Assembly (NCBI GenBank): GCA_038065795.1
Contig: JBBTQG010000056.1
Location: 1-36,893, forward strand
Origin: Patescibacteria group bacterium
GTDB lineage: Bacteria > Patescibacteriota > Minisyncoccia > UBA6257 > HR35
Length of the DNA: 36,893 bases
Reading direction: 5' to 3'
The notes under the pieces were generated by a model, which did not search any database, was not told the origin of the DNA, and saw only the letters and a list, made by a program, of their open reading frames with translations. Every line of letters starts with the position of its first letter. The stretch's first letter is position 1. Of this stretch, positions 8,434 to 35,850 are shown piece after piece. Both the position numbers and the translations under genes were made by a program.

Positions 8434-8821
8434 AAAACCGAAAAGAGTCGGAAGAGGAGGAAAGAAAGGAACCTATTCAGGGAAAGGACTCAAAGGGCAG
8501 AGTTCGAGAGCAGGAAGAAAATTTAGACCAGCATTGAGAGATGTGATTATTAAATTACCTAAAAAAAGAGGATATAGATTTAAAACAATTTCTGAAAAAC
8601 CGCATATTGTTAATCTTGGAGATATTAGTAAAAGATTTAGTGATGGAGAAAAAGTTGGAGTAAAGGAATTGGTTGCAAAAAAGTTATTGAATATTCCGAG
8701 GTCAAAAAAGAATCCAAAAGTAAAAATTCTTGGAAAGGGCGAATTTGATAAAAATACCAAATTGATATTTAAAACAGGTATGCTTTTTTCAAAACAAGCA
8801 AAAGAAAAAACCATTAAATAA
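8402..8821 (+). CDS. rplO: 50S ribosomal protein L15
   Basis: KRVGRGGKKGTYSGKGLKGQ motif. It overlaps rpsE by 32 nt, which leaves no room for rpmD. Confidence 0.85.
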   Translation: MLIHQIQYKNKKPKRVGRGGKKGTYSGKGLKGQSSRAGRKFRPALRDVIIKLPKKRGYRFKTISEKPHIVNLGDISKRFSDGEKVGVKELVAKKLLNIPRSKKNPKVKILGKGEFDKNTKLIFKTGMLFSKQAKEKTIK

Positions 8822-10098
8822 TGCAAAAATTTATAAATACAATAGTTAGTTTGTTTAAAGCTCCTGAATTAAGAAAAAGGGTTTTGATAATTTTAGGTTT
8901 GCTTATGATGTTTAGATTGACTGCAAATGTTCCGTTACCAGATGTAGATTTAGCAAGAATTAAGGAATTACTTTCTTCAAATCAATTTCTGGGAATTTTG
9001 AATGTTTTTTCTGGAAATACTCTTTCAAATATGTCAATTGCGATGTTGGGTGTTGGACCTTATATTACAGCAATAATTATTATGCAATTATTGACACTTA
9101 TATACCCTAAATTTAAGCAGATGTACTATGAAGAAGGCGAAGCTGGAAAAGCAAAATTTAATCAATACGCGAGACTTGCGACAATTCCTCTTGCATTTTT
9201 ACAGGGTTTTGGATTTTTAAAGTTTTTACAATCGCAAAATATTTTACTTTTTTCGTCATCTTACGCGATGTTTAGGGATATTATGATTATTACAGCTGGC
9301 ACGATGTTTTTGATGTGGATTGGAGAACTAATAACAGAGCAAAAACTTGCAAATGGAGTTTCATTAATTATTTTTTCAGGTATTGTTGCGCGGGGTCCTG
9401 AATTATTGAGACAAATTATAATCACATTTACTCCTGCCCAAATTAATAATTACATAATTATGGTTGTGATGGCGCTTTTGGTAATTGGTGGAATCGCGTT
9501 TATTACTGAAGCCGAGCGAAGAGTTCCTTTGAATTTTGCAAAACGCGTAAGAGGAACAAAAATTTATGGAGGCTCTTCATCGTATCTTCCAATCAGAGTT
9601 AACCAAGCTGGCGTTATCCCAATTATTTTCGCTTTGTCAATTTTGCTTTTCCCTGTAACTTTTGGACAGATTTTATCATCAACAGGATTATCTGTGTTTA
9701 AAACAATGACAGAAGTAATAAATCAATTATTTCAGAATCAACTTATTTTTTCATCATTTTATTTTATATTAGTTTTTATATTCACATATTTTTACACATC
9801 TATTACTTTTGAACCAAATGAATTAGCAACTAATTTTCAGAAATCAGGCGCATTTATTCCGGGAATAAGACCGGGAAAAGAAACTGCTAAATTTTTACAT
9901 AAACTTGTAACAAGAATTACTCTATTCGGCGCGTTGTTTCTGGGAATTGTTGCAGTTTTGCCAAACATTACACAGGCTTTGACCGGATTGCCATTTGTTG
10001 GAATTGGAGGAACTTCTATTTTGATTTTAGTTTCTGTGGCAATAGAAACTCTAAGACAAATTGACGCAGAGATAAGTGTAAGAAGATACGATGTATAG
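8821..10098 (+). CDS. secY: Preprotein translocase subunit SecY
   Basis: 425 aa and multi-pass hydrophobic, with GVGPYITA and NQAGVIPIIFA motifs; canonical position after rplO. Confidence 0.9.
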   Translation: MQKFINTIVSLFKAPELRKRVLIILGLLMMFRLTANVPLPDVDLARIKELLSSNQFLGILNVFSGNTLSNMSIAMLGVGPYITAIIIMQLLTLIYPKFKQMYYEEGEAGKAKFNQYARLATIPLAFLQGFGFLKFLQSQNILLFSSSYAMFRDIMIITAGTMFLMWIGELITEQKLANGVSLIIFSGIVARGPELLRQIIITFTPAQINNYIIMVVMALLVIGGIAFITEAERRVPLNFAKRVRGTKIYGGSSSYLPIRVNQAGVIPIIFALSILLFPVTFGQILSSTGLSVFKTMTEVINQLFQNQLIFSSFYFILVFIFTYFYTSITFEPNELATNFQKSGAFIPGIRPGKETAKFLHKLVTRITLFGALFLGIVAVLPNITQALTGLPFVGIGGTSILILVSVAIETLRQIDAEISVRRYDV

Positions 10099-10101
10099 TT
10101 A

Positions 10102-10291
10102 ATCGAGCAATATTTTGCTTGTTGCCGCCTCATCCTCCCCCAGCGTGGCGGATGGGCTAAGCCTCGGGCTCGCTCGTCGCGCACCTTTTTTCAAAAAGTG
10201 CGCGACACCATGCCCGCCCCGCCTGCAATGCTTTGCATAGCAATGCGGGCAGGTCGCCCTGCGGAATGCCCCTCGCAAAACATTGCTCGAT
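10102..10291. repeat. GC-rich palindromic intergenic element (family A)
   Basis: A 17-bp terminal inverted repeat, ATCGAGCAATATTTTGC (10102-10118) versus GCAAAACATTGCTCGAT (10275-10291), with 1 mismatch. There is an internal 9-bp stem GTCGCGCAC/GTGCGCGAC. G+C is far above the flanks. It shares collinear 8-, 8- and 12-mers with 25838-26024 in the opposite orientation. Confidence 0.7.
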
Positions 10292-10323
10292 AAGACTGGT
10301 AGTTTTTATGTTAAAATGTTGAA

Positions 10324-10929
10324 ATGGACATATTTTTGATTACAGGAAAGCCGGCTTGTGGAAAAGACACGCAAGCTGATTTTATTGCCAAAAAATTTAA
10401 AGCTAAAAAAATTATTACAAGCAAACTTGTTGGAAATTTTTTATCTAATACAGCATTAAACAAGATAAAAATTGGAAATTCTGTTATAGATTTAGAAAAA
10501 CAAAGAAAAATTCCCGAACAAGGAAAATTATGGAATCCAAAACTCGTTTCGTTTGTTTTGTCAAAAGAATTACTTAAAGCTATAAAATTAAAAAAATCAA
10601 TTGTTATTTCTGGATCTCCAAGAACATTAGCAGAAGCAAAAGATTATTTTGATATTTTAAACAAAAATTTAAACAAAGAAGATTATCATTTTATAAATTT
10701 AAAGATTTCTGACAAAACATCTATAAAGCGTGCCCTTCTGCGAAAAAGAAATATTGATGACTCGGCGAAAGTAGTAAAAGAACGATTAAATGTTTTTAAA
10801 AAACAAATTTTACCAACGATTTTTTTCCTTAAAAAACAAGGAGTTCTCATGGAGATAAACGGCGAAAAAACAAGAAAAGAAATTTTTGCCGAAATTTGTA
10901 AAAAAGTTGAAAAAAAATTTAAGTGTTAA
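10324..10929 (+). CDS. adk: Adenylate kinase-like nucleoside monophosphate kinase (short form)
   Basis: P-loop GKPACGKDT, ISGSPRT (the DGFPRT equivalent), R..DD...RL, and the canonical position after secY. Confidence 0.7.
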   Translation: MDIFLITGKPACGKDTQADFIAKKFKAKKIITSKLVGNFLSNTALNKIKIGNSVIDLEKQRKIPEQGKLWNPKLVSFVLSKELLKAIKLKKSIVISGSPRTLAEAKDYFDILNKNLNKEDYHFINLKISDKTSIKRALLRKRNIDDSAKVVKERLNVFKKQILPTIFFLKKQGVLMEINGEKTRKEIFAEICKKVEKKFKC

Positions 10930-10939
10930 AATATGTATT

Positions 10940-11455
10940 ATGAATGATTTAATAGATGCCGAAAATGCCGAAAACGATTTAACGCTTTCAGCTTTTAAGA
11001 CCGCATCCGGCATAAAATTAGAAACAAATACACTAATCAAAGAAATCAACGATTTTATAAAAGTTGACCCAAACTTTGGATACAGGATTTTAGTTGGAAC
11101 TGATTCAGAAACTAATAACGGCTATATTGATTTCGTAACAGCGATTGTTGTGCATAGAGTTGGACAAGGAGCAAGATATTTTTGGAAAAGAAAAATTTCA
11201 AATAAAAGATTAGAGTTACATCAAAGATTATGGGAAGAAGCTCTTTTTAGTTTAGACATAAGTCAAAAATTACTCGGACTCTTGGTTGATATACGCAAAG
11301 ATTTTAGATTTGAACTTCATTTGGATTTGGGGACAAAAGGAAAAAGCAATAGTGTTGTAAAAGAAATTACAAATTTAATCAGAAGTTATGGAATGGATGT
11401 TAAAATTAAGCCAGAATCTTACGCCGCATCAAAAATCGCTGACAGACTCATATAA
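10940..11455 (+). CDS. YkuK/DUF458-like RNase H-fold protein
   Basis: ILVGTDSE, FVTAIVVHRVGQGARYF, HLDLGTKGKS and KIKPESYAASKIADR match the YkuK family pattern from memory. The start is taken at the internal ATG at 10940 because the upstream part overlaps adk. Confidence 0.6.
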   Translation: MNDLIDAENAENDLTLSAFKTASGIKLETNTLIKEINDFIKVDPNFGYRILVGTDSETNNGYIDFVTAIVVHRVGQGARYFWKRKISNKRLELHQRLWEEALFSLDISQKLLGLLVDIRKDFRFELHLDLGTKGKSNSVVKEITNLIRSYGMDVKIKPESYAASKIADRLI

Positions 11456-11485
11456 AATTTAGCGAAGCAAACAAATTCTCCTCGA

Positions 11486-11659
11486 TCACCCCAGTCGACT
11501 CGCTCCAGCGGCTCGTCGCTGCTCATCTCTCATCCTGCCGACCGAGTTGTTAATTTGAAAAAATGCCGAAAACAATTTATTGTTTTCGGCGCTGAAAATT
11601 ATAAATTTTCAGCATTTTACAGCTCGGACCAATCTCGGCAGGACTACGAGGCGTGCTCC
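11486..11659. repeat. GC-rich structured element (family 1) carrying a nested twin-hairpin element
   Basis: The core halves 11486-11546 and 11623-11659 align with 29343-29450. They are interrupted at the apical loop by about 76 nt that contains the twin hairpin 11565-11613. Confidence 0.75.
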
Positions 11660-11718
11660 TGATTCACTTGAATACGGGGCTTTTTTTATTTATAAATTTT
11701 TGATATAATATATTTATT

Positions 11719-11886
11719 ATGGTTAATACAATAGCATCTCATAAAATAAAGTCCGTAGGAATTAATACCGTATTACAAACAAGACAAAAAGCCTACAGAA
11801 ACATATTAAAATTGAGGAAAAAATTAAAAAATAAAGTTAAAATGTCTGAAATCTTAAAATGGATTCATGAGTCAAGAAAATATTAA
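11719..11886 (+). CDS. Small basic ORF, candidate antitoxin of the downstream PIN toxin
   Basis: 55 codons, overlapping the PIN gene start by 20 nt. TGATATAAT (11701-11709) lies about 10 nt upstream of the ATG. No recognisable antitoxin fold motif. Confidence 0.3.
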   Translation: MVNTIASHKIKSVGINTVLQTRQKAYRNILKLRKKLKNKVKMSEILKWIHESRKY

Positions 11887-12286
11887 TTTATTATCAAAAT
11901 CTAATAATTTTACGGTTGACGCGTCTTTTATAGCCTCTTTCTTTTTACCAGATGAAAAAGTTTTGCAATTTTCTGATGAAATTTTCAAACAATTTAATGA
12001 AAATAAAATTATATTTTATTCATCATCAGTACTTATATATGAAGTCGGAAATGTATTTACATCAAGCCTAAAAAGAAAAAGATTGGATATAAATGTAGCA
12101 AAACAATTTTATAAAGAATTTCTAAATTTAAAAATAATATTTATAGAAATTGAACCTAAATTAATTTTAGAAATATCAAATAATTTAGACCTGACTTTTT
12201 ACGACGCTTCATATGTATATATATCACAAATTACAGGTACGCCACTTTTAAGCTACGATAAAAAATTATTGAGTAAAATTAAGTAA
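11867..12286 (+). CDS. PIN-domain (VapC-like) ribonuclease toxin
   Basis: The four acidic PIN positions are present in the right contexts: FTVDAS, IYEVGN, FYDASYVY and LLSYDKKL. Confidence 0.65.
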   Translation: MSQENINLLSKSNNFTVDASFIASFFLPDEKVLQFSDEIFKQFNENKIIFYSSSVLIYEVGNVFTSSLKRKRLDINVAKQFYKEFLNLKIIFIEIEPKLILEISNNLDLTFYDASYVYISQITGTPLLSYDKKLLSKIK

Positions 12287-13423
12287 ATGGATAAATTTGA
12301 TTTAATTACGCAAAATTTGGAAGAGGTTTTGACGCCAGAAGAATTAAAAATATTGATTGATAATAAAGAAAAATTAGTTCATTATATTGGTTTTGAAATT
12401 TCTGGATTAGTGCATTTAGGAAGCGGGTTATTGAGTTGTATGAAAATAAAAGATTTTCAAGAAGCAGGCGTTCAGACGAAAATATTTTTAGCTGATTGGC
12501 ATGCTTGGATAAATGAAAAATTAGATGGTAAACTTGAAACTATCAAAAAAATTGGAGTTGGCTATTTTAAGGAAGCATTTATTGCGACATTAGAAGCAAT
12601 TGGCGCAAATCCAAAAAAAACAGAATTTATTTTGGGTTCTGATTTATATCATAACGCAGATAAGTATTGGCTCACAGTTGTTGAAGTTGCAAAAAATACA
12701 ACTCTTGCAAGAACGCAAAGAAGTATAGATATTTTAGGAAAAAAATTAGGAGAAGGAACTGATTTTGCAAAATTAATGTACCCAATAATGCAAGCAAGCG
12801 ATATTTTTTTTATGGATGTAAATTTAGCGCACGCGGGAATGGACCAACGAAAAGCGCATGTTATCGCAAAAAATGTTGCTAATAATTTATCATTTAAGCC
12901 ATTGCTAAATAAAAATAAGCAAAAAATCAAACCTGTTGCGTTACACCAGCATTTGCTTTTAGGACTTGGCAAACCACCTAGAGACCCGAAAGAGCTTTCA
13001 AAAGAAGAACTTCAAGATTTACGCGCTGAAATGAAAATGTCAAAATCAAAACCAGACACTTGTATTTTTGTTCATGATTCTCCTTCTGAAATTGAAAGAA
13101 AAATTATGAAAGCATATTGTCCGCCCCCTCTACTTTCATCGGGGCAAGCTACTGACATAGAATACAATCCAGTAGTTGATTGGACAATAAATTTAATTTT
13201 ACCGCTTAAAAATAATATCAATATAAAAACTCAAAGTGGAGCAAAAAATTATAAAAATAAAGAATCTTTAATCAATGATTATCAAAATGAAATAATTCAT
13301 CCAATGGATTTGAAAGAAGCTGTTATTAAAGAACTTCAACAAATTCTAAATCCAATTTATAAACATTTTCAATCAGGCAGACCTCAAAAATTATTGGGAG
13401 AACTAATGCATATTAAGGCATAA
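12287..13423 (+). CDS. tyrS: Tyrosyl-tRNA synthetase, archaeal/eukaryal type
   Basis: Collinear by recall with M. jannaschii TyrRS: YIGFEISGLVHLG (HIGH), LADWHAW, YPIMQASD, KMSKS, KAYCP and HPMDLK. Confidence 0.8.
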   Translation: MDKFDLITQNLEEVLTPEELKILIDNKEKLVHYIGFEISGLVHLGSGLLSCMKIKDFQEAGVQTKIFLADWHAWINEKLDGKLETIKKIGVGYFKEAFIATLEAIGANPKKTEFILGSDLYHNADKYWLTVVEVAKNTTLARTQRSIDILGKKLGEGTDFAKLMYPIMQASDIFFMDVNLAHAGMDQRKAHVIAKNVANNLSFKPLLNKNKQKIKPVALHQHLLLGLGKPPRDPKELSKEELQDLRAEMKMSKSKPDTCIFVHDSPSEIERKIMKAYCPPPLLSSGQATDIEYNPVVDWTINLILPLKNNINIKTQSGAKNYKNKESLINDYQNEIIHPMDLKEAVIKELQQILNPIYKHFQSGRPQKLLGELMHIKA

Positions 13424-13508
13424 ATAAAATACTCTATAATTACAGAATTACAGCTTTTACTTTAAGCATTTTTATGTTATACTTTTGATATATTGATTTA
13501 ATTAAAAA

Positions 13509-15176
13509 ATGACTAAAATTTTATTTCAACGCCTTATAAAATGGGTAAAAAATAATAAAAAAATCGCAGGGATTACAGGATTTTTTATAATTATTGTTAT
13601 TGTATTTTTTGTTAATAAGATAAAAAATAATACTCAATTTGAATTAGTCGAAGTAAGTCGCGGCAATATAAATCAAGAAATATCAGCTACTGGAAAAGTG
13701 AACCCAGCAACAAGAATAGATTTGCAATTTAAAAATAGCGGTAAATTAGTTTTATTAAACGCAAAAATTAATAATAAAGTTCGCGCGGGACAATCGTTGG
13801 CTCAACAAGATACAAGTATGTTATACGCGCAGTCATCTGAAATCAAAGCTCAAATTGATGAGGCTAAGGCGCAATTGAATTCATATAAAGCGGCATTAGA
13901 AGCTCAATCGGCAAAATTAGAAGAATTAAATAAAGGCACAAGACCAGAAGAAATCAAAATTCAAGAAATCAAAGTTGAAAATGCTCAGATATTATATGAG
14001 GATACAAAAACAGCCGTTGTTGACGCCTTGTTGGAAGCTTACACGCAATCCGATGATGCTATAAGAAATAAAATTGACCAATTTTTTAAAGATGCTCAAA
14101 CACAAAATCCAAAATTAACTTTTGATTTGACAGATTTACAGCTTCAGCGAGATGTTGAATTTGGAAGACTTGTTGTGGGGTATGATTTAAGTTTATGGAA
14201 AAATTCCGCTGATAAATTATCTATATCAAGCGAGTTATTACAAGAAGTATATTCAACAAAAACACATCTGGGAAAAATAAAACAATTTTTAAACAATATT
14301 GCGCTCGTAATAAATAATCCAAGCAACGCGCCATCAAGCATCTCTCAATCAACAATAGACGGGTGGAAAAATAGTGTTTCAACTGCAAGAACAAACATAG
14401 ACGCAATAATAAATAAAATATCTTCTGCTGAGGAAAGAATGAAAACATCAGAATCATCTTTAATATTGGCTGAAAACGAATTAATTCTTAAAGAATCGGG
14501 AACAATTCAAGAGCAAATCAACGCTCAAAAAGCACAAGTAAAACAAGCAGAAGCAAATATTTTACTTCAAGAAGCTAAAATAAAAGAAACAGAGGCTTCT
14601 TTAAATAAAAATAACGCGCAAATTAGAGAAATGATTTTAACCTCGCCCGCTAATGGTGTAATTTCAAATGTTGATGGAAATATTGGCGAAATTATCAATT
14701 CAAATAAAATTATTATTTCTATAATTCCAGACGGGAATTTACAAATTGATGTAGATATTTCAGAAGCTGATATTGTGGATATAGAAGTCGGTCAAGTTGT
14801 AAAAATAACTCTTGACGCATTTGGAGGTGATGTAATTTTGAAAGGAAAAGTTGCTCAAATTGAACCAGCAGAAACAACCGTTGGCAATGCGACATACTAC
14901 AAAACCAAAGTTTTATTTGACAATCAAGATAAAAAAATAAAATCTGGAATGACTGCTAATATCTGGATAAAAACAGCGAATAAAGAAAATGTTTTAATTA
15001 TTCCAGCAAATTCAATTAAAGAAAAAACTGACAAAAAATATGTTGAAGTTTTAGAAAATGGAGAAGTAAAACGCAAAGACATAAAAACTGGACTAAAAGG
15101 AGTTGGCGGAATCGTTGAAGTTATTTCAGGATTAAAAGAAGGAGATAAAATAATTGTTTCTACAGAAAAGAAATAA
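13509..15176 (+). CDS. HlyD/MacA-family periplasmic adaptor (membrane fusion protein)
   Basis: N-terminal TM helix, long coiled-coil repeats, and a beta-barrel C-terminus (GMTANIWI); it precedes the ABC permease. Confidence 0.75.
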   Translation: MTKILFQRLIKWVKNNKKIAGITGFFIIIVIVFFVNKIKNNTQFELVEVSRGNINQEISATGKVNPATRIDLQFKNSGKLVLLNAKINNKVRAGQSLAQQDTSMLYAQSSEIKAQIDEAKAQLNSYKAALEAQSAKLEELNKGTRPEEIKIQEIKVENAQILYEDTKTAVVDALLEAYTQSDDAIRNKIDQFFKDAQTQNPKLTFDLTDLQLQRDVEFGRLVVGYDLSLWKNSADKLSISSELLQEVYSTKTHLGKIKQFLNNIALVINNPSNAPSSISQSTIDGWKNSVSTARTNIDAIINKISSAEERMKTSESSLILAENELILKESGTIQEQINAQKAQVKQAEANILLQEAKIKETEASLNKNNAQIREMILTSPANGVISNVDGNIGEIINSNKIIISIIPDGNLQIDVDISEADIVDIEVGQVVKITLDAFGGDVILKGKVAQIEPAETTVGNATYYKTKVLFDNQDKKIKSGMTANIWIKTANKENVLIIPANSIKEKTDKKYVEVLENGEVKRKDIKTGLKGVGGIVEVISGLKEGDKIIVSTEKK

Positions 15177-15178
15177 AA

Positions 15179-16414
15179 ATGTTTAAAGATTGTAAAATCG
15201 CGTTTTTTTTGGCTTATAAATCTATCGCAAGAGGGAATAAGGCTGTAATTTTTCTTGTTGTTTTTATTATGTCTCTCGCTTTTATTAATTTAATTTTTGT
15301 TTCCGGAATTTTAAACGGATTTATTGTAACAATCGCAAAACAAGTAAAAACATATTACACAGCAAATATTGTTGTTAATCCGCAGGAAGAACCAATAAAA
15401 AAAGATTATATTATTCATGTAAATGAATTGCAGGAACAAATTGAAAGTATGCCCGGAGTTGTCGCGACAGCTCGGCATTATAAATTAGCTGGAACTCTTT
15501 CGTTTGATAAAAATAAAAATGGGAAATTAAAATTTATATCAGCTGAGATTTTAGGGATTGACCCAGACAAAGAAAAATTAATAAATAACGCCTATCAAAA
15601 AGTTGTAGATGGATATTATTTAGATGAACTTGACAGAGACGAGATATTGATTGGCGCAGAAATAGCAGGCGGTGAATACGGCGGACTTGATTTTTTAAGT
15701 TTAGGCGGAGTTAAGGCTGGAGACAAAATAAATATTACATTCGGAAATGGTATCTATAAAACATACAGAGTAAAAGGAATTTTACAAACCAATCTTGATT
15801 TTGTTGATATGGGAGCTTATATAAGCTCAAAAGAGGCGGAATCAGTTTTATCTGTTTATAATAATGCCTCACAAATTTTGGTTAAACTCAAAGACGGAGT
15901 TAGCGAGGAAACTGAAAATGATTATCAAAATGAAATTAAAAAACTCGCTCCTAATTTAGAAATAAGAAAGTGGACAGATTATATGGGTTCTCTTAAAGAT
16001 ATTTCAAAAAGTTTTAATTCAATCGCTTTAATGGTTGGAATTATTGGTCTTACTGTTGCCGCAATAACTATTTTTATTATGATTTATATAAATGTTGTTA
16101 ATAAGCGTCGTCAGATTGGAATTTTAAAAGCGATAGGAATTAAACAAAATATAATAATTCTTTCTTATATATTTCAAGCTATGTTTTATTCGGTACTTGG
16201 TGTAATTATTGGGTTGTTCTTAATTTTTTCATTGATTGGTCCGTATTTTATAAGAAATCCAATTAAATTGCCCATGGGTGATGTTGGATTGGCGTTGGAA
16301 AATAACGCGGTAATATTAGGAATAGTTAGTTTAATTTTGGCGTCAGTAATAGCAGGATTAATTCCGTCGTGGAATGCGGCGAGGGAGAATATATTGAAAG
16401 CGATATGGGGGTAA
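15179..16414 (+). CDS. ABC transporter permease, FtsX/MacB-like
   Basis: N-terminal TM helix, a large extracytoplasmic domain, then a C-terminal three-TM FtsX module (RRQIGILKAIG). Confidence 0.75.
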   Translation: MFKDCKIAFFLAYKSIARGNKAVIFLVVFIMSLAFINLIFVSGILNGFIVTIAKQVKTYYTANIVVNPQEEPIKKDYIIHVNELQEQIESMPGVVATARHYKLAGTLSFDKNKNGKLKFISAEILGIDPDKEKLINNAYQKVVDGYYLDELDRDEILIGAEIAGGEYGGLDFLSLGGVKAGDKINITFGNGIYKTYRVKGILQTNLDFVDMGAYISSKEAESVLSVYNNASQILVKLKDGVSEETENDYQNEIKKLAPNLEIRKWTDYMGSLKDISKSFNSIALMVGIIGLTVAAITIFIMIYINVVNKRRQIGILKAIGIKQNIIILSYIFQAMFYSVLGVIIGLFLIFSLIGPYFIRNPIKLPMGDVGLALENNAVILGIVSLILASVIAGLIPSWNAARENILKAIWG

Positions 16415-18614: not shown

Positions 18615-19652
18615 ATGGAAATAAAAGATTCTATTTACCTTATTGAGGTTGAAAAAATACAGCCAAACCCATATCAGCCAAGAAAATTTTTTGACGAAAC
18701 CGCGTTAAAAGAATTGTCTGAATCAATAAAAGAATATGGCATTTTAGAACCATTGATTGTTACGCGAAAAGAAGTATATACAGAAAATGGTGTGGAAGTT
18801 CTTTACGAACTTATTGCTGGTGAAAGAAGACTTGAAGCTTCAAAACTAATTGGACTAAAAACTGTCCCAGCAATAATAAAAATAGTTTCAGAAAAGGGCA
18901 AGCTTGAAATTGCGTTGATTGAAAATTTACAACGACGCGACTTAAATCCTATTGAAAAAGCAAAAGGTTTTTCAAGATTGATTGATGAATTTAGTTTAAC
19001 TCAAAGAGAAGTTGCATTTAAGCTTGGCAAGAGTAGGGAATATGTAGCGAACACTTTAAGGTTATTAAAACTTCCCGAAAAAATTCAAGAGTCAATAGGG
19101 AGGGGTGAGCTTTCAGAATCTCAAGCGCGACTGCTTCTTTCAATAGACGATATAGAAATTCAAAATCAATTATTTGACGAGGTTGTCAATGAGAGACTTA
19201 CTATACGAGACACCCAAAAACGATTAAAAATAAAACTTAGAGATAAAAATGCTGAGAAGCCCAAAGATATATCTTTGGGCGCCGAAAACGGTAAATCGTT
19301 TTCGGCATTGACTTTCGGCGCTGAAAGCGATTTATCGCTTTCAGCAATTGAAATTTCTAATCAAGACGAATTAGATTCAGACTGGATTGCATTTGAGCAG
19401 AAATTTGAAGAAGTGTTAGGAACAAAAGTTAAATTACAAAAAACAACTGACGGATTAAAGCTTGAAATAAATTTGTATTCAGAAGACGATTTACAAAAAG
19501 TCTTAGACAGCTTAAAAGCAAAAAAAATTCCGAATAGTAATGAAGAGGGAATAAGCGATGATGATATTGCCTTGATAAATATGAAAATGCAAAAGCTGGA
19601 TATTTTTGAAGAAGAGAAAGCAGAGAATTTATCATCGTTTGAAAAATTTTAA
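18615..19652 (+). CDS. parB: ParB/Spo0J-family partition protein with an extended C-terminus
   Basis: PNPYQPRK and GERRLEASK motifs and an HTH region (SLTQREVAFKLGKSREYVANTLRLLKL). No parA lies adjacent. Confidence 0.85.
   Translation: MEIKDSIYLIEVEKIQPNPYQPRKFFDETALKELSESIKEYGILEPLIVTRKEVYTENGVEVLYELIAGERRLEASKLIGLKTVPAIIKIVSEKGKLEIALIENLQRRDLNPIEKAKGFSRLIDEFSLTQREVAFKLGKSREYVANTLRLLKLPEKIQESIGRGELSESQARLLLSIDDIEIQNQLFDEVVNERLTIRDTQKRLKIKLRDKNAEKPKDISLGAENGKSFSALTFGAESDLSLSAIEISNQDELDSDWIAFEQKFEEVLGTKVKLQKTTDGLKLEINLYSEDDLQKVLDSLKAKKIPNSNEEGISDDDIALINMKMQKLDIFEEEKAENLSSFEKF
19261..19345. repeat. Hairpin triplet (family 2 twin hairpin plus an 18-bp palindrome) inside parB
   Basis: CCAAAGATATATCTTTGG; GCCGAAAACG-GTAAAT-CGTTTTCGGC; GCTGAAAGCG-ATTTAT-CGCTTTCAGC. 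In frame, they encode PKDISLGAENGKSFSALTFGAESDLSLSA. Confidence 0.8.
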
Positions 19653-22183: not shown

Positions 22184-22732
22184 TTATCTATCACCGAATA
22201 AAGTTTTAAATCCAGCAGTATTCACCCAAAAATTCTGCGGGTTGTGGAGTAAATATTTTTTAATCTCTTTTCTTTGCGTTGCTAGTTTTTCTCCGCCATT
22301 CGTTTCGCTTAAAAGAATATTGGAATAGCTGCCATCTAAAAATGCGATATAAGAGATATTTTTATTCTGTTCCTTTAAACTAATAATTTCAATCAATTCG
22401 GCGATTTGTTTATCTTGTCCGCCGCCGGAAGTATTTAAATGTTTTGCCTCGCATAAAAATATTTTACCATTCACTTTAATAATCAAATCCAATTTTTTAT
22501 TTTGTTTCTTGGTAGCCAATCTAATGCCTAAATTTTTACGGACATTTTTTACGCTAAAAATCTTTGAAAATTTGGCTACACATTTTCGCTTGTTTAAAAA
22601 TTCTTTCCATTTTTTAACCTCTTGAAAATCATTTTTTGTAAGAATACGCAAAAGTTTTTTCTCTCCGCATCTCCCTTTTTTGCGCGATGAGTTCGTATCC
22701 AATATCGCCTGCACCCACTTTTCCAGCGCCAT
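22184..22732 (-). CDS. PD-(D/E)XK nuclease, DpnII/MboI-like restriction endonuclease core
   Basis: KKLDLIIKVNGKIFLCEAKHLNTSGGGQDKQ gives D-x13-E-x-K followed by a Gly-rich SGGGxxK. This mirrors DpnII (FDFVIK..LIEVNFYSGSGSKLNE) as recalled from memory. Confidence 0.55.
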   Translation of the reverse strand: MALEKWVQAILDTNSSRKKGRCGEKKLLRILTKNDFQEVKKWKEFLNKRKCVAKFSKIFSVKNVRKNLGIRLATKKQNKKLDLIIKVNGKIFLCEAKHLNTSGGGQDKQIAELIEIISLKEQNKNISYIAFLDGSYSNILLSETNGGEKLATQRKEIKKYLLHNPQNFWVNTAGFKTLFGDR

Positions 22733-22783
22733 TTCATTCAGCGCTCTTTTGATAAAATATCTTTCAGTAATTTTTTATTATTT

Positions 22784-22996
22784 TTAAATTTTTCCATTTG
22801 ACCAATTTTCAAAACAACTTTTACATAGGTAAAGATTGTTGTCATTTATTGGTTCTTCTATATCAAAAGTATCAAAATTTTTATCTTCATTATAATTTCC
22901 TTTTTTATCTATATTGTATTTAACCCAAACTTTTTGTAAATTAAACCTTGAATTTTTATTGCAGTAATAACATTTTATAAAATTTTCTTTATTCAT
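22784..22996 (-). CDS. Small zinc-ribbon protein (CxxC...CxxC)
   Basis: 70 aa with CYYC near the N-terminus and CKSC near the C-terminus. It starts 11 nt after the upstream gene. Confidence 0.5.
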   Translation of the reverse strand: MNKENFIKCYYCNKNSRFNLQKVWVKYNIDKKGNYNEDKNFDTFDIEEPINDNNLYLCKSCFENWSNGKI

Positions 22997-23007
22997 ATTT
23001 TTTTATG

Positions 23008-23637
23008 TTAATTATTCATATTTTGCTCCATTATTCTTATGAAATTAGACAGAGATGTGGCATCAACACCGGTTCTGTAATAACAATCCTTATATTTTTT
23101 CCAGCCAGTTCTTGTTCCATGTTTATTAAATTCCTCAAATTCTTTTACAGTTAATAAAACATTTCTGTTGCCATTATTATTTAATAATTTTTTAATTATA
23201 TTTATTTTTTCACCATTAGCCTCATCTATTAACGAAATTATTTGTTCAGCAAATCGAGTGGTTAATGGAATTTCATTTTTTGTTGTTGATGATGTTATTT
23301 TAATGCTAATTTTGCTTCTATCTATATTTTGAGAGTTCTTATCGTCTAAATTTCCACCTAGACACTTAAGTAATATACAAGCTTTGTAAAATTCAATTTG
23401 ATAAAATTCAGTAGTGTTTATTCTTTTCAGTACCTGTTTGCATATTTTTTCAATAACTAAAACTTTTGTACTTTCAAAATCAAAAATAGCTAATTTATTT
23501 TTCTTTGATTTCTCATTACTTTCGAAATATCTATGTGCATTTTTTGCTCGCTCCAAAGTTCCAATACCTATTTTACAAACATCTTTAATATTGTGCTCAA
23601 AAATATACAAAATTTGTTTTTCAGTTGTCTTGCTCAT
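23008..23637 (-). CDS. T5orf172/GIY-YIG-like N-terminal domain protein with an unassigned C-terminal domain
   Basis: ILYIFEHN..VCKIGIGT..RAK...IEKICKQVLKR..TEFYQI fits the T5orf172 pattern (hYhh...KIG.T...lE..h...l...r..EFF). The C-terminal ~110 aa have no recognisable motif. Confidence 0.45.
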   Translation of the reverse strand: MSKTTEKQILYIFEHNIKDVCKIGIGTLERAKNAHRYFESNEKSKKNKLAIFDFESTKVLVIEKICKQVLKRINTTEFYQIEFYKACILLKCLGGNLDDKNSQNIDRSKISIKITSSTTKNEIPLTTRFAEQIISLIDEANGEKINIIKKLLNNNGNRNVLLTVKEFEEFNKHGTRTGWKKYKDCYYRTGVDATSLSNFIRIMEQNMNN

Positions 23638-23697
23638 ATTTTTTATTTCTTTAATTGTAAATCGATATAAAACATATTCTTCACAACTTATAATTGA

Positions 23698-24051
23698 CTA
23701 TATTGAAACCTGATACAAATCTTCAAAACTTGAATGTATTCCAGAAAAAAATATTTCTTTGGTTTTTTGGTCCGCTTTGTTTTTGTGCAAATACGGCGGA
23801 TTAGTACAAACAAATTTATATTCTTGAGGAAGATTTATTGAGTCATTATAAAAAACATTGCTATTATCAACATATTTTCTATCGCAATCAAAACCAATAA
23901 CTTTTTTGGCATTACTTTTCTTTGCCCACTTAATCAAATCTTGGTTTCCTGCAAAGGGGTCGGTAACTTCCTCATCTTTTATAAACTTTTCTAATCCTTG
24001 CAGAATAAGATCTGAGTTTGTTGTAAAAAATTGTCCAAATTGCTTTTTCAT
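23698..24051 (-). pseudogene. N-terminal half of a gamma-class N6-adenine DNA methyltransferase (truncated)
   Basis: GQFFTT (motif X), TDPFAGNQDL (motif I) and NPPY (motif IV) occur in that order. The ORF ends at TAG about 30 codons after NPPY, at DLYQVSI, with no motifs V-VIII or target-recognition domain. Confidence 0.65.
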
Positions 24052-25837: not shown

Positions 25838-26024
25838 GAGGGCGACAAGTGTTCCCTGCCCGCCATAGCCTTCTTCCGATAATTATAATTTTTTTATAAA
25901 TATTTCATAAATTTTATTATATTTTATATTTAATCGAATAAATGGCTTAGGCAGGCGGGCTTGTCCGCCATCGGCTATCGCTGAAGGCGATTGCAGGCGG
26001 GTACCAGCTGAACTAACGCCCCTG
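25838..26024. repeat. GC-rich element related to family A, split by an AT-rich segment
   Basis: AGGGCGAC (25839-25846), CTGCCCGC (25856-25863) and ATTGCAGGCGGG (25990-26001) are collinear with the reverse complement of 10218-10260. GC-rich arms flank about 75 nt of AT-rich sequence. Confidence 0.55.
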
Positions 26025-26054
26025 ACTTATCTATATTTTACCATTTCGGCGTTC

Positions 26055-27062
26055 TTATCGCAACAAAAAATTCTTTCCTCCCCTTACTTCAAAATGCAGA
26101 TGGCATCCAGTTGGACCGCTCACATTTCCAGTATTTCCAACAGACGCAACTAGGGTTCCCTTTTCAACATAGTCCCCCTGATTAACATATCTTTCTGAAA
26201 GATGACCATATAAAGTCATGACTCCATCGCTATGTTGAATTCGTATGTTTGTTCCGTATCCGTCATTCCAGCCATTAGATGATTCAATAACCATACCAGA
26301 ATTAGCAGAATAAACTGGCTTGCCACACTCTGCTGAAACATCAACACCATTATTAGAATGAGCTCCCGGCTGATCATATCCAGAAACAGGCGATAACCAA
26401 TTTCCAATAGGGGTTAACGCTTCAACAAATCTCCCAACTAATGGAATTTTGGCGATAATATTATTTTTTGACGCCACCGTAACATTCACTCCCGGTGGTA
26501 AATAAATTGTTTGACCAGCTATAATTGTATTCTTTTTATTTAATTGATTTAATGCAATAATTGTTTTTTCGGATACTTTAAATTTGTAGGCAATATGTGA
26601 TAAGGTTTCATTTTTCTTAACAATATATTTCCAATTATTATTACTTGGTAAAACAACGCTATGAATAACTTCTTCATAATTTTCCCAAGTTTTATCTTTA
26701 TTTAAAATAGAAAGAACGCTTAAACTATTTAAATCGCCACTTTCGTCAATCGCTATAGTAGGATTTATCGAATTTTCATAATTTATAGATGATAAAAAGT
26801 TTTCTTGAAAATCAGTTGTTGGGGTTGGAACTTTTTGTGCAAAACTAAAATCACCTCGCTTTATCAATAAAACGATTGCTATTATAAAAAATATAAATCC
26901 TATTTTTTCAAATTTACTAATTTTAATAAAACCAAAGCCGAAAAATAACGAATATTTTGTATTTTTTGGCGCTAAAAATGGTACCGAAAATGACGGAAAT
27001 TTATTTTCCGTCGCTGAAAATGAATTATCATTTTCAGCATTACTTTTCGGCGCACAAAACAA
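26055..27062 (-). CDS. LysM-domain M23 family metallopeptidase
   Basis: LysM (YIVKKNETLSHIAYKF...IIAGQTIYLP) and M23 (GVDVSA.., YGHLS, GPTGCHLHFEV). An N-terminal TM helix is preceded by repeat-encoded residues. Confidence 0.85.
   Translation of the reverse strand: MFCAPKSNAENDNSFSATENKFPSFSVPFLAPKNTKYSLFFGFGFIKISKFEKIGFIFFIIAIVLLIKRGDFSFAQKVPTPTTDFQENFLSSINYENSINPTIAIDESGDLNSLSVLSILNKDKTWENYEEVIHSVVLPSNNNWKYIVKKNETLSHIAYKFKVSEKTIIALNQLNKKNTIIAGQTIYLPPGVNVTVASKNNIIAKIPLVGRFVEALTPIGNWLSPVSGYDQPGAHSNNGVDVSAECGKPVYSANSGMVIESSNGWNDGYGTNIRIQHSDGVMTLYGHLSERYVNQGDYVEKGTLVASVGNTGNVSGPTGCHLHFEVRGGKNFLLR
26964..27053. repeat. Family 2 hairpin cluster inside the 5' end of the M23 peptidase gene
   Basis: GACGGAAA-TTTAT-TTTCCGTC and GCTGAAAATGA-ATTATC-ATTTTCAGC, flanked by TTTTGGCGCTAAAAA and TTTTCGGCGC. 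On the minus strand they encode CAPKSNAENDNSFSATENKFPS. Confidence 0.7.
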
Positions 27063-29165: not shown

Positions 29166-30098
29166 ATGTTCTACAAAAAATCATTGGGGCAACATATATT
29201 ACACGGAGAAGGAATTTTGAAAAAGATTGCTGGGGCGTTGGGGGATATTGGTGATGAGATTGTTGTTGAAATTGGAGGAGGCACAGGCAATTTGACTGGT
29301 TTTTTGGTTAATAATATTTTTTTGCATACAACTTTTTCTCAGTCATCGCAGTCGGTTCGCTCCAGCGGCGAACCGCTGCTCATCTCTCACCCCGCCGACT
29401 CCTCGCTAACGCTCGGAGACCAATCTCGGCGGGGCTACGAGGCGTGCCCTCAAAAAAGTTGTATACAAAAAAATACCAAAAAACTTATGGTCTATGAATT
29501 GGATAATGATTTGGCGGAGTTGCTGAAAGGTAAGTTTCCGGATGCTGAAATTAAAAATGAAGATTTTTTGCAGGCGGATTTAGCTCAATTCAAAAATAAT
29601 TATCTCTTGATTGGCAATATTCCATATTTTATTACTGGACAAATTTTGCGAAAAGTTTTTACATTAGAAAATTATCCCAAAATAGCTGTTTTTACAATTT
29701 CAAAAGAACAAGGTGAAAAATTTCTATCCGTTCGCTCCGCTCAGGGTAAAGTAAGTGGAAGTTTTTGGAGTAATTGGATTAAAGTTTGGGGAAAAGTTGA
29801 AAAAGTTTGTACAATAAAAGCCAGTTCATTCTTCCCCCCCCCGAAAATTGATTCAATAGCGATAAAAATAAATTTTTATAAAAAACCAATAATTTCAGAA
29901 CCAGAAAATTTTGTAAAATTTTTAAAAATTATTTTTAACCGTCCCAAGCAAACAACTGTCAATAATTTAAAAGGCGCGTATGGGAATGAGGGTGTTAAAA
30001 AATTTATAGAGGAGTTGGGAACATTACGACCCCACCAACTAACATTTGAACAGGTTTTGAAGTTGTATGGAGCAATGACGAATAAAAGGTTAAAATAA
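29166..30098 (+). CDS. rsmA: 16S rRNA dimethyladenosine transferase RsmA/KsgA with a ~53-aa repeat-derived insertion
   Basis: SLGQHIL, VVEIGGGTGNLT and GNIPYFITGQIL motifs. Residues ~51-103 are encoded by the GC-rich element. Confidence 0.8.
   Translation: MFYKKSLGQHILHGEGILKKIAGALGDIGDEIVVEIGGGTGNLTGFLVNNIFLHTTFSQSSQSVRSSGEPLLISHPADSSLTLGDQSRRGYEACPQKSCIQKNTKKLMVYELDNDLAELLKGKFPDAEIKNEDFLQADLAQFKNNYLLIGNIPYFITGQILRKVFTLENYPKIAVFTISKEQGEKFLSVRSAQGKVSGSFWSNWIKVWGKVEKVCTIKASSFFPPPKIDSIAIKINFYKKPIISEPENFVKFLKIIFNRPKQTTVNNLKGAYGNEGVKKFIEELGTLRPHQLTFEQVLKLYGAMTNKRLK
29317..29473. repeat. GC-rich structured element (family 1) inserted in frame in rsmA
   Basis: A 21-bp AT-rich inverted repeat (29317-29337 versus 29453-29473, 1 mismatch) brackets the 108-nt core 29343-29450. 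That core aligns over its whole length with the reverse complement of 31346-31453. Confidence 0.85.
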
Positions 30099-30103
30099 AA
30101 AAT

Positions 30104-30538
30104 TTAAATAGTCTTAATTGTATCTATATTGTCAATTGTTATCCAAGCTGACATTGCGCCGAAACCAGTTTTGTCTATATTGAACGGAGTAATTTTTTGT
30201 GGATTTTTAAGAAAAATTAACATGCAATAATTTTTATTTTTAAATAACTCATAAAATTCTTGAATTTTATTTTGTTCTATCCCGTCATCTTCTCCGTATT
30301 CTTTTAAAATTTTCATTACTTTTTGTGGAGTTAAATTTTCAATTTGAATAACTTTTTCAACTTCTGCTTTAATAGTTACGGGTTCCCCGGAATCTTTAAA
30401 ATAAACAATTTCTCCGGATTTAATTTTATCCCAAGGCGAGTATTTTACTTTATACCAGCGAGATTCTATTTTCTTTTTTCCATTTAAAATTTTTTGTGTT
30501 AACCCCCAATTTTTTCGCATAATCGCCAAATGTTGCAT
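30104..30538 (-). CDS. ASCH-domain (PUA-like) protein
   Basis: 144 aa with GKKKIESRWYK (the ASCH K.iE.R signature) and a beta-rich pattern. Assigned from memory of the family. Confidence 0.5.
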   Translation of the reverse strand: MQHLAIMRKNWGLTQKILNGKKKIESRWYKVKYSPWDKIKSGEIVYFKDSGEPVTIKAEVEKVIQIENLTPQKVMKILKEYGEDDGIEQNKIQEFYELFKNKNYCMLIFLKNPQKITPFNIDKTGFGAMSAWITIDNIDTIKTI

Positions 30539-30571
30539 TTTTAAAATTAATATGAATAAAGTAAAAAAATG

Positions 30572-30644
30572 TGCGCCCAGCAGGAATCGAACCTACAACC
30601 TTATCCTTAAGAGGGATCTGCTCTGCCGATTGAGCTATGGGCGC
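30572..30644 (-). tRNA. tRNA-Lys (anticodon CTT)
   Basis: Acceptor GCGCCCA/TGGGCGC, D arm GCTC-AATCGGC-AGAGC, anticodon loop CTCTTAA, T arm GTAGG-TTCGATT-CCTGC. Confidence 0.85.
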
Positions 30645-30950
30645 GCTTCGCTTATGCTCAGCGTAAACTTCTCACTATGCTCGGAGTGAACTTTTTCGCT
30701 CAGAGTAAATTGTTTTATTAATTTTAACTTTTTTTCTTTACGCCAACCTTTTATTTCTTTTTCTCTTTTTGCGGCTTCATTACGAGAATTAAATCTTTCA
30801 TAATATTTTAACATTATAGGAACCTTATTTTTTTTGCAAGCAACTTTTTATTCTGGCATTATGCTCTGTGATTCGTCTTGTCAAATTTGAAGTTATACCA
30901 GTATAAAATGAACCGTCTCTACATTCAATTATGTAAACAAAGCAAATCAT
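30635..30950 (-). pseudogene. Frameshifted GIY-YIG (YhbQ/URI-like) nuclease gene
   Basis: Frame 1 reads MICFVYIIECRDGSFYTGITSNLTRRITEHNA and then stops after an A8 run (30828-30835). The +1 frame continues VPIMLKYYERFNSRNEAAKREKEIKGWRKEKKLKLI. The ORF tail runs into tRNA-Lys. Confidence 0.7.
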
Positions 30951-30985
30951 TATTTTTTAAGCTTGCCCTGAGCCGAAGCGAAGGG

Positions 30986-31059
30986 TGACCCCAACCGGAT
31001 TTGAACCGGTGTTCTCAGCTTGAAAAGCTGATGTCCTAACCAAACTAGACGATGGGGTC
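30986..31059 (-). tRNA. tRNA-Glu (anticodon TTC)
   Basis: Acceptor GACCCCA/TGGGGTC, anticodon stem TCAGC/GCTGA with loop TTTTCAA, T arm ACCGG-TTCAAAT-CCGGT. Confidence 0.85.
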
Positions 31060-31102
31060 TTATGCTGAGAATAAACTTTATTCAAGTTTTACACATTCAT
31101 TC

Positions 31103-31257
31103 GCGTCTATTTCCTCAGGCACCGGCGGTTCTCGTATTCCAGCGATTCGATCCCGCCTCGTGTCTCGGCGTCACAACCCAGCCGTAATTTTGAAAAGAAT
31201 TATACGGCTGGGACCAAGCTTGCGACGCCTCCGACACGTGCCTTCGGAAATAGACGC
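31103..31257. repeat. Long GC-rich imperfect hairpin (~155 nt) next to tRNA-Glu
   Basis: Base stem GCGTCTATTTCC/GGAAATAGACGC (12 bp), then GGCAC/GTGCC, CGTGTC..GGCGTC/GACGCC..GACACG, and apical CCCAGCCGTA/TACGGCTGGG with an AT-rich tip. A side branch runs GGCGG...CCGCC. Confidence 0.7.
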
Positions 31258-31320
31258 TCGTTAAATTATTACATCGTTATAAAATTTACTCTGTTGCAAT
31301 TTATGGAACTATTATTGTAT

Positions 31321-31481
31321 ACATTATACGCGAATATGTTTTATAAGGGCACGCCTCGTAAGTCTTGCGAGATTGGTCTCCGAGCGTTAGCGAGGAGTCG
31401 CAAGACTGAGAGATGAGCAGCGGTGAGCCGCTGGAGCGAACCGACTGCGGTGACCGAATAAAGTATATTCGCGCATAATAT
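31321..31481. repeat. GC-rich structured element (family 1), intergenic copy in reverse orientation
   Basis: The core 31346-31453 is the reverse complement of the rsmA copy, with differences concentrated in paired positions. It is flanked by a 17-bp imperfect inverted repeat (31321-31337 versus 31465-31481). Confidence 0.85.
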
Positions 31482-31489
31482 GTAATTTT

Positions 31490-31807
31490 TTACACGCTCC
31501 CGTTCTTTTTGTCTTTTAATTTTTCTAATACTTTATCTGCCCAAACTTGAACTTTTAACGACTCTATTTTTGTTTTTCTTATAAATTTTTCAAATACATT
31601 ATACATTAATTTTTCAAACTTTAACGCCTTTTCTCCTAATTTTAATCTTCTAAATTTTGCTCTAAATTTACTCTGAAAATTATTAAACCATAAATAATCA
31701 TAACCCATTAACTTGACTTTTCCCCCTCTTATTTTTATAAAAACAGCGATGCCTGTAAATATCAAAAGCGCTAAAATTGGCGAAAAATAAAAAATAAACT
31801 CCTGCAT
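31490..31807 (-). CDS. Hypothetical small membrane protein
   Basis: 105 aa with an N-terminal TM helix and a basic, helical C-terminus. It lies 12 nt downstream of tsf. Confidence 0.4.
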   Translation of the reverse strand: MQEFIFYFSPILALLIFTGIAVFIKIRGGKVKLMGYDYLWFNNFQSKFRAKFRRLKLGEKALKFEKLMYNVFEKFIRKTKIESLKVQVWADKVLEKLKDKKNGSV

Positions 31808-35169: not shown

Positions 35170-35213
35170 GCATTCGCTCTTCGTCCCGCATATGCGGGAC
35201 GAAGAGCGAATGC
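35170..35213. repeat. Perfect 44-bp GC-rich palindrome
   Basis: GCATTCGCTCTTCGTCCCGCAT|ATGCGGGACGAAGAGCGAATGC, verified base by base. It lies between tRNA-Leu and a tRNA-3'-end-like fragment. Confidence 0.9.
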
Positions 35214-35238
35214 CCATTTCATTTTGGCTCCTTGCCTT

Positions 35239-35754: not shown

Positions 35755-35834
35755 GCCGAAAATTAAATGTTAAAAATGATAATTTATTTTTGACATTTAA
35801 TTTTCGGCGCTAAAAGCGATAAATCGCTTTTAGC
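35755..35834. repeat. Family 2 twin-hairpin element, intergenic copy
   Basis: GCCGAAAATTAAATGT...GACATTTAATTTTCGGC (35755-35808) is immediately followed by GCTAAAAGCGA-TAAA-TCGCTTTTAGC (35809-35834). Confidence 0.8.
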
Positions 35835-35850
35835 ATTTAAAAAAGAGTCG

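Follow-up and report, generated by a model that had tools for sequence, protein, structure and literature searches.

What is the strongly folded, GC-rich sequence that recurs in an AT-rich genome of the Parcubacteria (Candidate Phyla Radiation), and is it a structured RNA or a structured mobile element? This question is addressed here in a stretch of 36,893 nucleotides of groundwater origin, which is called the window. The window has a GC content of 32% and carries a ribosomal-protein operon together with secY, adk, rsmA, tsf and rpsB. The relatives of its SecY protein carry the names Patescibacteria or Parcubacteria. Exact matches were found in MAG GCA_964360415.1 and in contigs from three wells of the Hainich aquifer (H41, H43 and H52).

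Copies in the window

The copy under study (31.3-kb copy) occupies positions 31321-31481 on the minus strand and scores 138.8 bits. The whole element of 161 nt contains a core of 115 nt (31345-31459) and an AT-rich outer stem, an inverted repeat of 17-24 nt in which 31465-31481 pairs with 31321-31337. Its fold has an energy of -65.9 kcal/mol (z = -7.7), and it starts 9 nt past the stop codon of a 105-aa gene (31490-31807, minus strand). A second copy is located on the plus strand at 29315-29475, inside the gene for the 16S rRNA dimethyladenosine transferase RsmA. It measures 161 nt between the outer stem ends, scores 143.5 bits and folds with a z of -9.0; its core (29337-29451) is also 115 nt long, and its outer stem of 23 nt (29315-29337 with 29453-29475) has 22 pairs and one C·A mismatch. 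The third copy (11.5-kb copy; 11480-11660, plus strand) begins 25 nt 3' of the stop codon of an RNaseH-like gene (10886-11455). It is without a long outer stem, and a hairpin and a T-run come after the element.

The first-pass annotation of this DNA had placed three copies at these sites, and all of them were confirmed in the sequence. In a repeat search, the 31.3-kb and rsmA copies align as arms of 124 nt (29334-29457 and 31339-31462) that are 85% complementary, while the split 11.5-kb copy aligns at 11467-11542 (79%) and 11627-11675 (78%). The core had been drawn too short, at 108 nt, and the count of three was incomplete. The window holds four copies, the last being a divergent one at 31103-31258 (core 31113-31245) on the plus strand. 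This copy has a 12-bp outer stem of its own, GCGTCTATTTCC/GGAAATAGACGC, and lies 62 nt from the 31.3-kb copy in the opposite orientation. By eye its identity is about 60%; the architecture is kept and nearly all helices are re-written, with the loop UCCAGCG and the bulge ACCAAGC retained.

A first covariance model was built from four copies. With this model the window copies other than the divergent one score 93-144 bits (E = 1e-24 to 2e-39), which excludes chance and indicates that the repeat is real. The value for the 11.5-kb copy, which has a 72-nt insert, is 92.7 bits; another search gave 125 bits. The divergent copy, which the first model brought to light, scores 51.9 bits (E about 1e-12 to 6e-15) with a covariance model that was not trained on it.

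Copy number and distribution

Family 1, as we call it, has eight known copies, each with a score of 118-132 bits under model R2. Four of them lie in the window, one is on another contig (L045) of MAG GCA_964360415.1, and three are on contigs L024, L025 and L027 from the same aquifer samples; matching coverage suggests that the last three contigs come from the genome that also contains the window. Four copies lie within about 57 kb of contiguous sequence that includes the window, and the tgt contig has one more in 17 kb. By extrapolation of this density the genome would contain tens of copies. The units are 156-287 nt long and have no transposase ORF inside; the sole open frame in them is a read-through frame. 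None of the copies is a near-identical duplicate of another (about 91% for the closest pair, hand count), and recent activity is thus not evident.

The distribution of the family is narrow. A metagenome scan with ACCAATCTCGN7TACGAGGCG gave nine loci; five of them, all in Hainich assemblies, are true copies and represent three distinct sites, and the other four were chance matches in GC-rich DNA. The scan of GTDB representative genomes with CCAGCGGN5CGCTGCTCATCTC resulted in 21 matches, all of them chance matches in GC-rich genomes, and in no true copy. Pattern scans of viral contigs gave no true match; three candidates scored 8.9 bits or fell below threshold. In relatives whose SecY is 68-74% identical, a model search of the 9-21 kb near secY detected no copy.

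The earlier statement that the sequence matches no RNA family agrees with our searches. Nothing in Rfam 15 overlaps any copy at the gathering score, and nothing overlaps the family 1 cores at E <= 10 in 29250-31550 and 10050-11750. The only overlapping Rfam matches are sub-threshold sRNA models on nested AT-rich hairpins (11556-11647). A full-text literature search found no description of such repeats in Candidate Phyla Radiation bacteria. The family is previously undescribed and consists of GC-rich, strongly folded repeats of about 160 bases, which occur between and inside genes.

Fold and covariation

The core is formed by helices P1 and P2 and by hairpins A and B. P1 (model columns 5-10 with 108-113) reads GGuCAC/GUGcCC, and P2 (columns 46-50 with 103-107) reads UCUC/GAGG, or GUGUC/GACAC in the divergent copy. 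Hairpin A (columns 12-43) has a covarying stem of about 12 bp, GCAG-U-CGGYUCRC and GYGARCCG-CUGC, which encloses the conserved loop UCCAGCG. Hairpin B (columns 54-98) is composed of a variable 9-bp helix, a conserved 7-nt bulge ACCAAUC and a replaceable apical stem. The tetranucleotide after helix B is CTAC in five of the eight copies, TTAC in two and CTCC in one. While every helix covaries, the loop UCCAGCG, the linker UCAUCUCUC, the bulge ACCAAUC and a 3' segment CGA..CGUGCC are conserved, also in the divergent copy.

Outside the core lies P0, the AT-rich outer stem of 12-27 bp, which is near perfect and specific to each copy. It is present in six of the eight copies and absent or short in two. 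The sequence differs between copies and only sub-groups are alike. The AT-rich inverted repeats that the first-pass annotation had seen at the rsmA copy (23 nt, one mismatch) and the 31.3-kb copy (17-24 nt) are real, but they are not wholly unrelated, as it had assumed, because subsets of the stems have common motifs. The 31.3-kb copy and the L025 copy have the motif GCGCGAATA..TTT.T in common; the motif AACTTTT(T)CTC is found in the rsmA copy, in the tgt copy and in one copy of a second family (see below).

The 9-bp helix is perfectly Watson-Crick paired in each of the three copies for which this had been reported: CCCCGCCGA/TCGGCGGGG at 29390-29398/29426-29434 in the rsmA copy, GTCTTGCGA/TCGCAAGAC at 31362-31370/31398-31406 in the 31.3-kb copy (letters of the plus strand; the copy reads on the minus strand) and TCCTGCCGA/TCGGCAGGA in the 11.5-kb copy. 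The conserved multi-helix fold with its many compensatory changes is supported as well. In the alignment of the eight copies to the covariance model, a fit that in itself favours the structure, 91.6% of the cells are paired over 37 pairs, and 22 of these pairs have changed on both sides. Controls in which the partners were slid against each other gave 31-44% paired cells. After column shuffling none of 500 alignments reached the observed value on four of five measures, and 2 of 500 did so on the further pair types. RNAalifold on its own returned the same helices, P2 included, and folding of the divergent copy by energy only gave the same architecture; these two results are independent of the model fit. 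Against shuffled sequences, the folds of the cores reach z values of -3.5 to -4.4, and inclusion of the flanking inverted repeats lowers these to -7.7 to -9.0.

A second, small hairpin with a variable loop (CAGCGG-NNNN-CCGCTG) had also been proposed. This hairpin is possible, but in it the 3' arm of hairpin A pairs in an alternative way, and the 'variable loop' belongs to this arm of the longer, covarying 12-bp hairpin, whose true loop is the conserved UCCAGCG. The loop bases covary with the 5' arm of hairpin A in the rsmA and L027 copies. In the other copies they are the reverse complement (CGAA/TTCG, CGAG/CTCG), possibly as a result of loop inversion, which would point to hairpin dynamics at the DNA level. 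The loop that had been given as GCTCGT in the 11.5-kb copy is in fact CTCG (4 nt). Together, these results confirm the original observation in a form that is stronger than first stated.

Copies inside rsmA and tgt

The rsmA ORF (29166-30098, plus strand; 310 aa) is open throughout the element. The insert occupies the loop that follows the GxGxG SAM-binding motif (motif I), between residues 49 and 99, and it contributes about 50-53 extra residues in frame. RsmA homologues of 242-256 aa are without this segment, and the alignment to Aquifex KsgA (3R9X/3FTC) skips residues 50-98 of the query. Relatives of this RsmA have ordinary, unstructured insertions of 20-26 aa in the same loop, which indicates that the site tolerates extra peptide. 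These shorter insertions were also considered as possible decayed copies; the DNA alignment (L001, L002) showed no convincing homology.

A word-indexed protein search with the element peptide found nothing. An exhaustive search of representative proteins resulted only in RsmA, a Tgt fragment (P0038) and one repetitive protein; the cluster of the Tgt fragment led to a full-length Tgt of 478 aa (P0160; MEK7673929.1). The tgt copy is on another contig of the same MAG (GCA_964360415.1) that contains the exact matches to the window. This Tgt is open through a complete copy with about 70 extra codons, the nested 72-nt AT-rich insert included. The frame of the element is identical in RsmA and Tgt (..SSG.PLLISHPAD..DQSRRGYEAC..; a peptide predicted from this frame is SSGEPLLISHPADSSLTLGDQSR). 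Over the whole family, five of the eight copies have no stop anywhere in this sense frame and every antisense frame has stops, which is suggestive but comes from too few copies to weigh much.

A contig of 1791 bp (L033, ENA Hain_H41) was considered as a truncated tgt. It turned out to be a chimera across the repeat: the helix B arms are mismatched, and the full-length Tgt exists. In this contig the 5' part of tgt runs on into the locus that lies downstream of position 11.55 kb in the window; a false 185-aa 'Tgt' protein in the databases is the result.

The copies inside genes raise the question of whether the element is removed from the transcripts. A small self-cleaving ribozyme or a new intron or intervening sequence, with the outer stem joining the junctions, would be consistent with a compact three-way junction that has conserved junction nucleotides, with an outer stem that juxtaposes the flanks, and with the multi-copy character, which is known from many ribozyme-bearing repeats; since no known family matches, it could be a novel one. 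However, both host ORFs are open through the whole element. Stops are expected at about 9% per codon in AT-rich sequence, and the fact that the AT-rich arms and the nested insert stay open in spite of this makes removal before translation unlikely. Neither of the stem-to-stem lengths, 161 and 212 nt, is divisible by three, so that removal exactly at the stem would leave a frameshift. In addition, the RsmA loop tolerates extra peptide in the relatives mentioned above, and no match to hammerhead, twister, pistol, hatchet, HDV or group I/II models was obtained at E <= 10. A hammerhead-like junction was also compared by eye and dismissed; the element has CUCAUCU instead of CUGAUGA and no GAAA, and Rfam also argues against it. 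We consider self-removal of this kind very improbable. In both genes the copy is most probably translated and not spliced out, and the open frames of the two hosts argue against an independent RNA gene or an intron at either site.

RNA or DNA

The pair cells of the eight-copy alignment are mostly Watson-Crick (256 of 295), with 13 G·U and 13 A·C cells, and both DNA strands of the element fold equally well. With G·U and A·C equally frequent, the folded form may be RNA or DNA, and of either strand. The first-pass annotation had read the covariation as a sign of selection on structure; with pairs that are nearly all Watson-Crick, a G·U to A·C ratio of 13:13 and equal folding of both strands, selection on an RNA is only one possible reading of it.

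The main rival to the mobile-element reading, which is presented below, is a structured RNA module used by the host. The AT-rich outer stem would then be an RNase III-type processing site, processing would either set the core free as a stable small RNA or regulate how stable the flanking mRNA is, and the loop and bulge would bind a protein. The conservation of the loop, linker, bulge and 3' motif while every helix covaries is consistent with such a module, and so is a core that stays GC-rich in a genome with 32% GC. The position of the copies points in the same direction, since most begin 2-25 nt after a stop codon and six of the eight lie on the strand of the neighbouring or host gene. Furthermore, RNase III is known to cut the terminal repeats of Correia elements (PMC10969869). 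The two remaining copies, however, are antisense to their neighbours (the numbers are small), and two others lie in essential-type genes, where cutting would destroy the mRNA and where the element is kept translatable instead. Also against this module are the G·U cells, which do not exceed A·C, and the narrow distribution: the pattern scans gave nothing beyond Hainich assemblies and the model search of a few related loci gave no copy. An excess of promoters or terminators around the copies was not found.

Strain contigs provide evidence on both sides. Over 10.5 kb (window 5112-15669 versus L035) there are nine single-base differences, three of which fall within the 210-nt element at 11.5 kb; hence the element evolves faster than its surroundings, and this also argues against a host module. 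Two of these three differences are G-C/G·U changes on the sense strand, as a host RNA might show. All nine are C/T transitions on the plus strand and none is G/A, so that a mutational bias explains the G-C/G·U changes equally well. With differences that are exclusively C/T, the two strands are markedly asymmetric in this region, where transcription is co-directional. On balance we regard a host-used RNA module as possible but unlikely.

The same data can be read at the level of DNA, as the dynamics of palindromes without any selection on structure. The copies would be old duplicates with arms that are corrected by intrastrand template switching or by arm-to-arm gene conversion, and the covariation would be mutational. 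The predominance of Watson-Crick pairs, the equality of G·U and A·C and the equal folding of both strands are all compatible with this explanation. The outer stems are near perfect over 12-23 bp and nevertheless different between copies, the 4-nt spacers of CAGCGG....CCGCTG occur as the reverse-complement pairs expected from loop inversion, and one strain polymorphism, U·G to C-G, perfects the palindrome. This explanation does not account, however, for the origin of the copies at eight unrelated sites, genes included, for the highest conservation being in unpaired segments, or for a GC-rich core against an AT-biased composition. As a sole cause it appears improbable to us. It can act together with the selfish-repeat reading and need not replace it; correction of palindromes at the DNA level probably contributes to the perfect pairing.

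Mosaic structure and related repeats

Four copies carry other stems in place of the hairpin B apex. In the 11.5-kb copy (11542-11627) the replacement is a longer stem that holds two AT-rich hairpins (11565-11590 and 11591-11613) from a separate repeat family found elsewhere in the window, and the apex in the tgt copy also holds two such hairpins. In the L025 copy the hairpin A loop holds an insert of 107 nt. The family of AT-rich perfect hairpins occurs in the window at 6727-6763, 10955-11000, 11562-11613, 19263-19353, 27001-27048 and 35797-35842 with the sequences GCCGAAAAC..GTTTTCGGC and GCTGAAAAT..TTTTCAGC, often as tandem pairs; the pair nested in the tgt copy is read as part of Tgt.

A second family (F2) is built like family 1: its core, GC-rich with several hairpins, is enclosed by an AT-rich outer stem that differs from copy to copy. 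Its first copy (10104-10290, plus strand) is located between secY and adk; it has a core of about 155 nt (fold z = -4.9), the outer stem ATCGAGCAATATTTTGC/GCAAAACATTGCTCGAT and no Rfam match. The other copy is at 1747-1930 of contig L027 (plus strand). Both lie directly 3' of a stop codon, that of secY in the window and that of an ABC ATPase gene on L027. F2 shares with family 1 the end motifs ..TCGCC.. and ..TGCCCCTC as well as the CCAGCG motif.

Other GC-rich islands re-use sub-hairpins. An unannotated island at 25939-26027, between tRNA-Ala and a LysM/M23 peptidase gene, contains GGCAGGCGGG motifs, which F2 and the L025 insert have as well; Rfam gives no match to the island at the gathering score, and it may be another module or a small RNA. 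Directly downstream of tRNA-Glu there is a stand-alone hairpin CCCUUCGCUUCGGCUCAGGG (30966-30985, minus strand), which resembles the apical stem CUCCUCGCUAACGCUCGGAG of hairpin B. A perfect 21-bp GC-rich hairpin, GGCATTCGCTCTTCGTCCCGC atat GCGGGACGAAGAGCGAATGCC (35171-35216), adjoins tRNA-Leu; its sequence is unrelated to the other families.

Evidence on possible mobility

Of the two readings offered by the first-pass annotation, a structured RNA or a structured mobile element, the latter is the better one, and there are indirect signs of a dispersed repeat. These are the eight unrelated sites, the insertions inside genes, the contigs that end in the element and the chimeric contig joined through it. 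The contigs that end inside the element are L038 and L039.

No transposase or IS was found among selected window ORFs searched against Pfam. The associated transposase or RAYT gene for which a search had been suggested was not seen in the approximately 130 kb examined, and neither was another candidate mobilising gene (for the other contigs, precomputed Pfam labels of called genes were used). The stems are without a consistent target-site duplication; TA or TTAA is possible at two sites, where it is indistinguishable from the palindrome itself. Five strain-level contigs showed no filled/empty polymorphism. The 11.5-kb copy is present in all five that span its site (two end inside the copy), and both 31-kb copies are present in the two that span them. 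A 155-nt strain difference in L044 proved to be a run of N.

The strain contigs differ in other places. Between rpsQ and rplN lies an AT-rich, unstructured insert of 225 nt, bordered on both sides by a 90-nt direct repeat (4742-4831 and 5057-5146; 96%) that is a duplication of the rplN start; contig L039 is without this insert, and it is thus a strain-level polymorphism. At 16.3-16.7 kb, comparison of L035 and L037 with L036 and the window shows that some strains swap a MacB/FtsX permease gene (411 aa) for a 182-aa ORF and a 60-aa GIY-YIG ORF, which suggests that a homing-endonuclease-type element was gained or lost. Restriction-modification fragments at 22184-24051 (minus strand), the C-terminal part of a DpnII/Tsp45I-like endonuclease and a short N6 methylase-like ORF, appear degraded.

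We favour, with a probability of roughly 0.55, the explanation that the element is a lineage-specific, non-autonomous, selfish structured repeat that works like the Rickettsia palindromic elements or the mitochondrial GC clusters. The unit would consist of the conserved 115-nt GC-rich core (P1, P2, hairpins A and B) and the enclosing AT-rich terminal inverted repeat of 12-27 bp, in which sequence would drift fast while complementarity is kept. We infer mobility through a folded single-stranded intermediate, of DNA or RNA, from which a copy would be made at a new site. An enzyme supplied in trans would recognise the conserved unpaired motifs, and only lineages that keep both fold and motifs would propagate, which would produce the compensatory pattern. 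Once inserted, the unit would be co-transcribed with the host gene, with one sense frame free of stops, and insertions in surface loops of RsmA and Tgt would be translated and tolerated. The repeat family, its fold, its covariation, the in-frame copies inside genes and the narrow distribution are direct observations.

Several points count against the selfish repeat. Even at about 60% identity, the divergent copy keeps the unpaired motifs strongly conserved, and a host function would also fit this. No mobilising gene, consistent target-site duplication, filled/empty polymorphism or recent copy was seen in the sequence examined, and the ends vary between copies. A more speculative idea, which we hold to be quite improbable, is that the core (P1/P2 junction, UCCAGCG, ACCAAUC) is a new functional fold of RNA or single-stranded DNA. 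It would either catalyse a reaction or recruit proteins, and in this way drive its own copying by a so far undescribed mechanism, or it would be a processing signal domesticated by the host. If the core did drive its own copying, outer stems remade by fold-back synthesis at each round would be perfect and different from copy to copy.

Assuming that the selfish-repeat reading is correct, structured repeats of this kind have spread even in the tiny, streamlined genomes of the Candidate Phyla Radiation, and there into the coding sequence of conserved enzymes. The family is a likely source of new protein loops, and its compact, well-covarying fold is suited to structural work on RNA and DNA. If it is true that the conserved unpaired motifs bind an enzyme, this enzyme could represent a new mobilisation system. 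A practical warning also follows: assemblies break or mis-join at the element, and one public contig fuses tgt with an unrelated locus.

Comparison with known systems

IS200/IS605-derived palindrome-associated elements have similar subterminal hairpins at both ends, are without terminal inverted repeats and occur with TnpA (HUH) in the genome. In the present element hairpins A and B are dissimilar and long terminal inverted repeats exist; TnpA was not seen in the approximately 130 kb. REP/REPIN sequences, which are mobilised by RAYT, resemble the element in their GC-rich palindrome, in the conserved tetranucleotide beside the stem (here CTAC in five of eight copies) and, as far as this can be inferred for the element, in propagation as a folded single strand with compensatory upkeep of hairpins. 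REPs, however, are 20-40 nt long with a GTAG/CTAC tag, and REPINs are doublets in which the arms are the conserved parts; the present architecture is far more complex and of another size, and the examined sequence has no RAYT.

Like a classical MITE the element is short, multi-copy and without a transposase ORF inside. Bacterial MITEs such as Correia/nemis and ERIC are also non-autonomous, with long terminal inverted repeats, co-transcription with neighbours and very stable RNA hairpins. In classical MITEs the conserved part is the terminal repeats, which correspond to those of a parent IS, and the target site is usually duplicated. In the present element, by contrast, the ends vary and the interior is conserved, with neither a consistent duplication nor a parent IS seen.

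In behaviour the element resembles the Rickettsia palindromic elements (about 100-150 bp). These short hairpin-forming repeats occur between genes and in frame inside unrelated housekeeping genes, where the added peptide is tolerated (PMC10969869). In the same way the element bears an open frame, and RsmA (310 aa) and Tgt (478 aa) read through it in the same frame. The hosts differ, Parcubacteria here and Alphaproteobacteria there, and so does the structure, with a GC-rich multi-helix core with a side hairpin, copy-specific outer stems and conserved unpaired motifs in the present case. Given the phylum and the base composition, homology between the two is unlikely.

The palindromic GC clusters and double-hairpin elements of mitochondria occur in AT-rich genomes, have constrained stems, merge, nest and shuffle, are found in some coding regions and have no known enzyme (PMC4478555). 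The element resembles them as a GC-rich palindromic unit in an AT-rich genome, in its swapped and nested modules and in the presence of a second family with the same ends. Mitochondrial clusters are organellar, about 20-80 nt long and built of single or double hairpins, whereas the element is bacterial, is 160-290 nt long and has five helices plus the AT-rich outer stem. The parallel extends to the hosts, since the genomes of Rickettsia and of mitochondria are also reduced and AT-rich.
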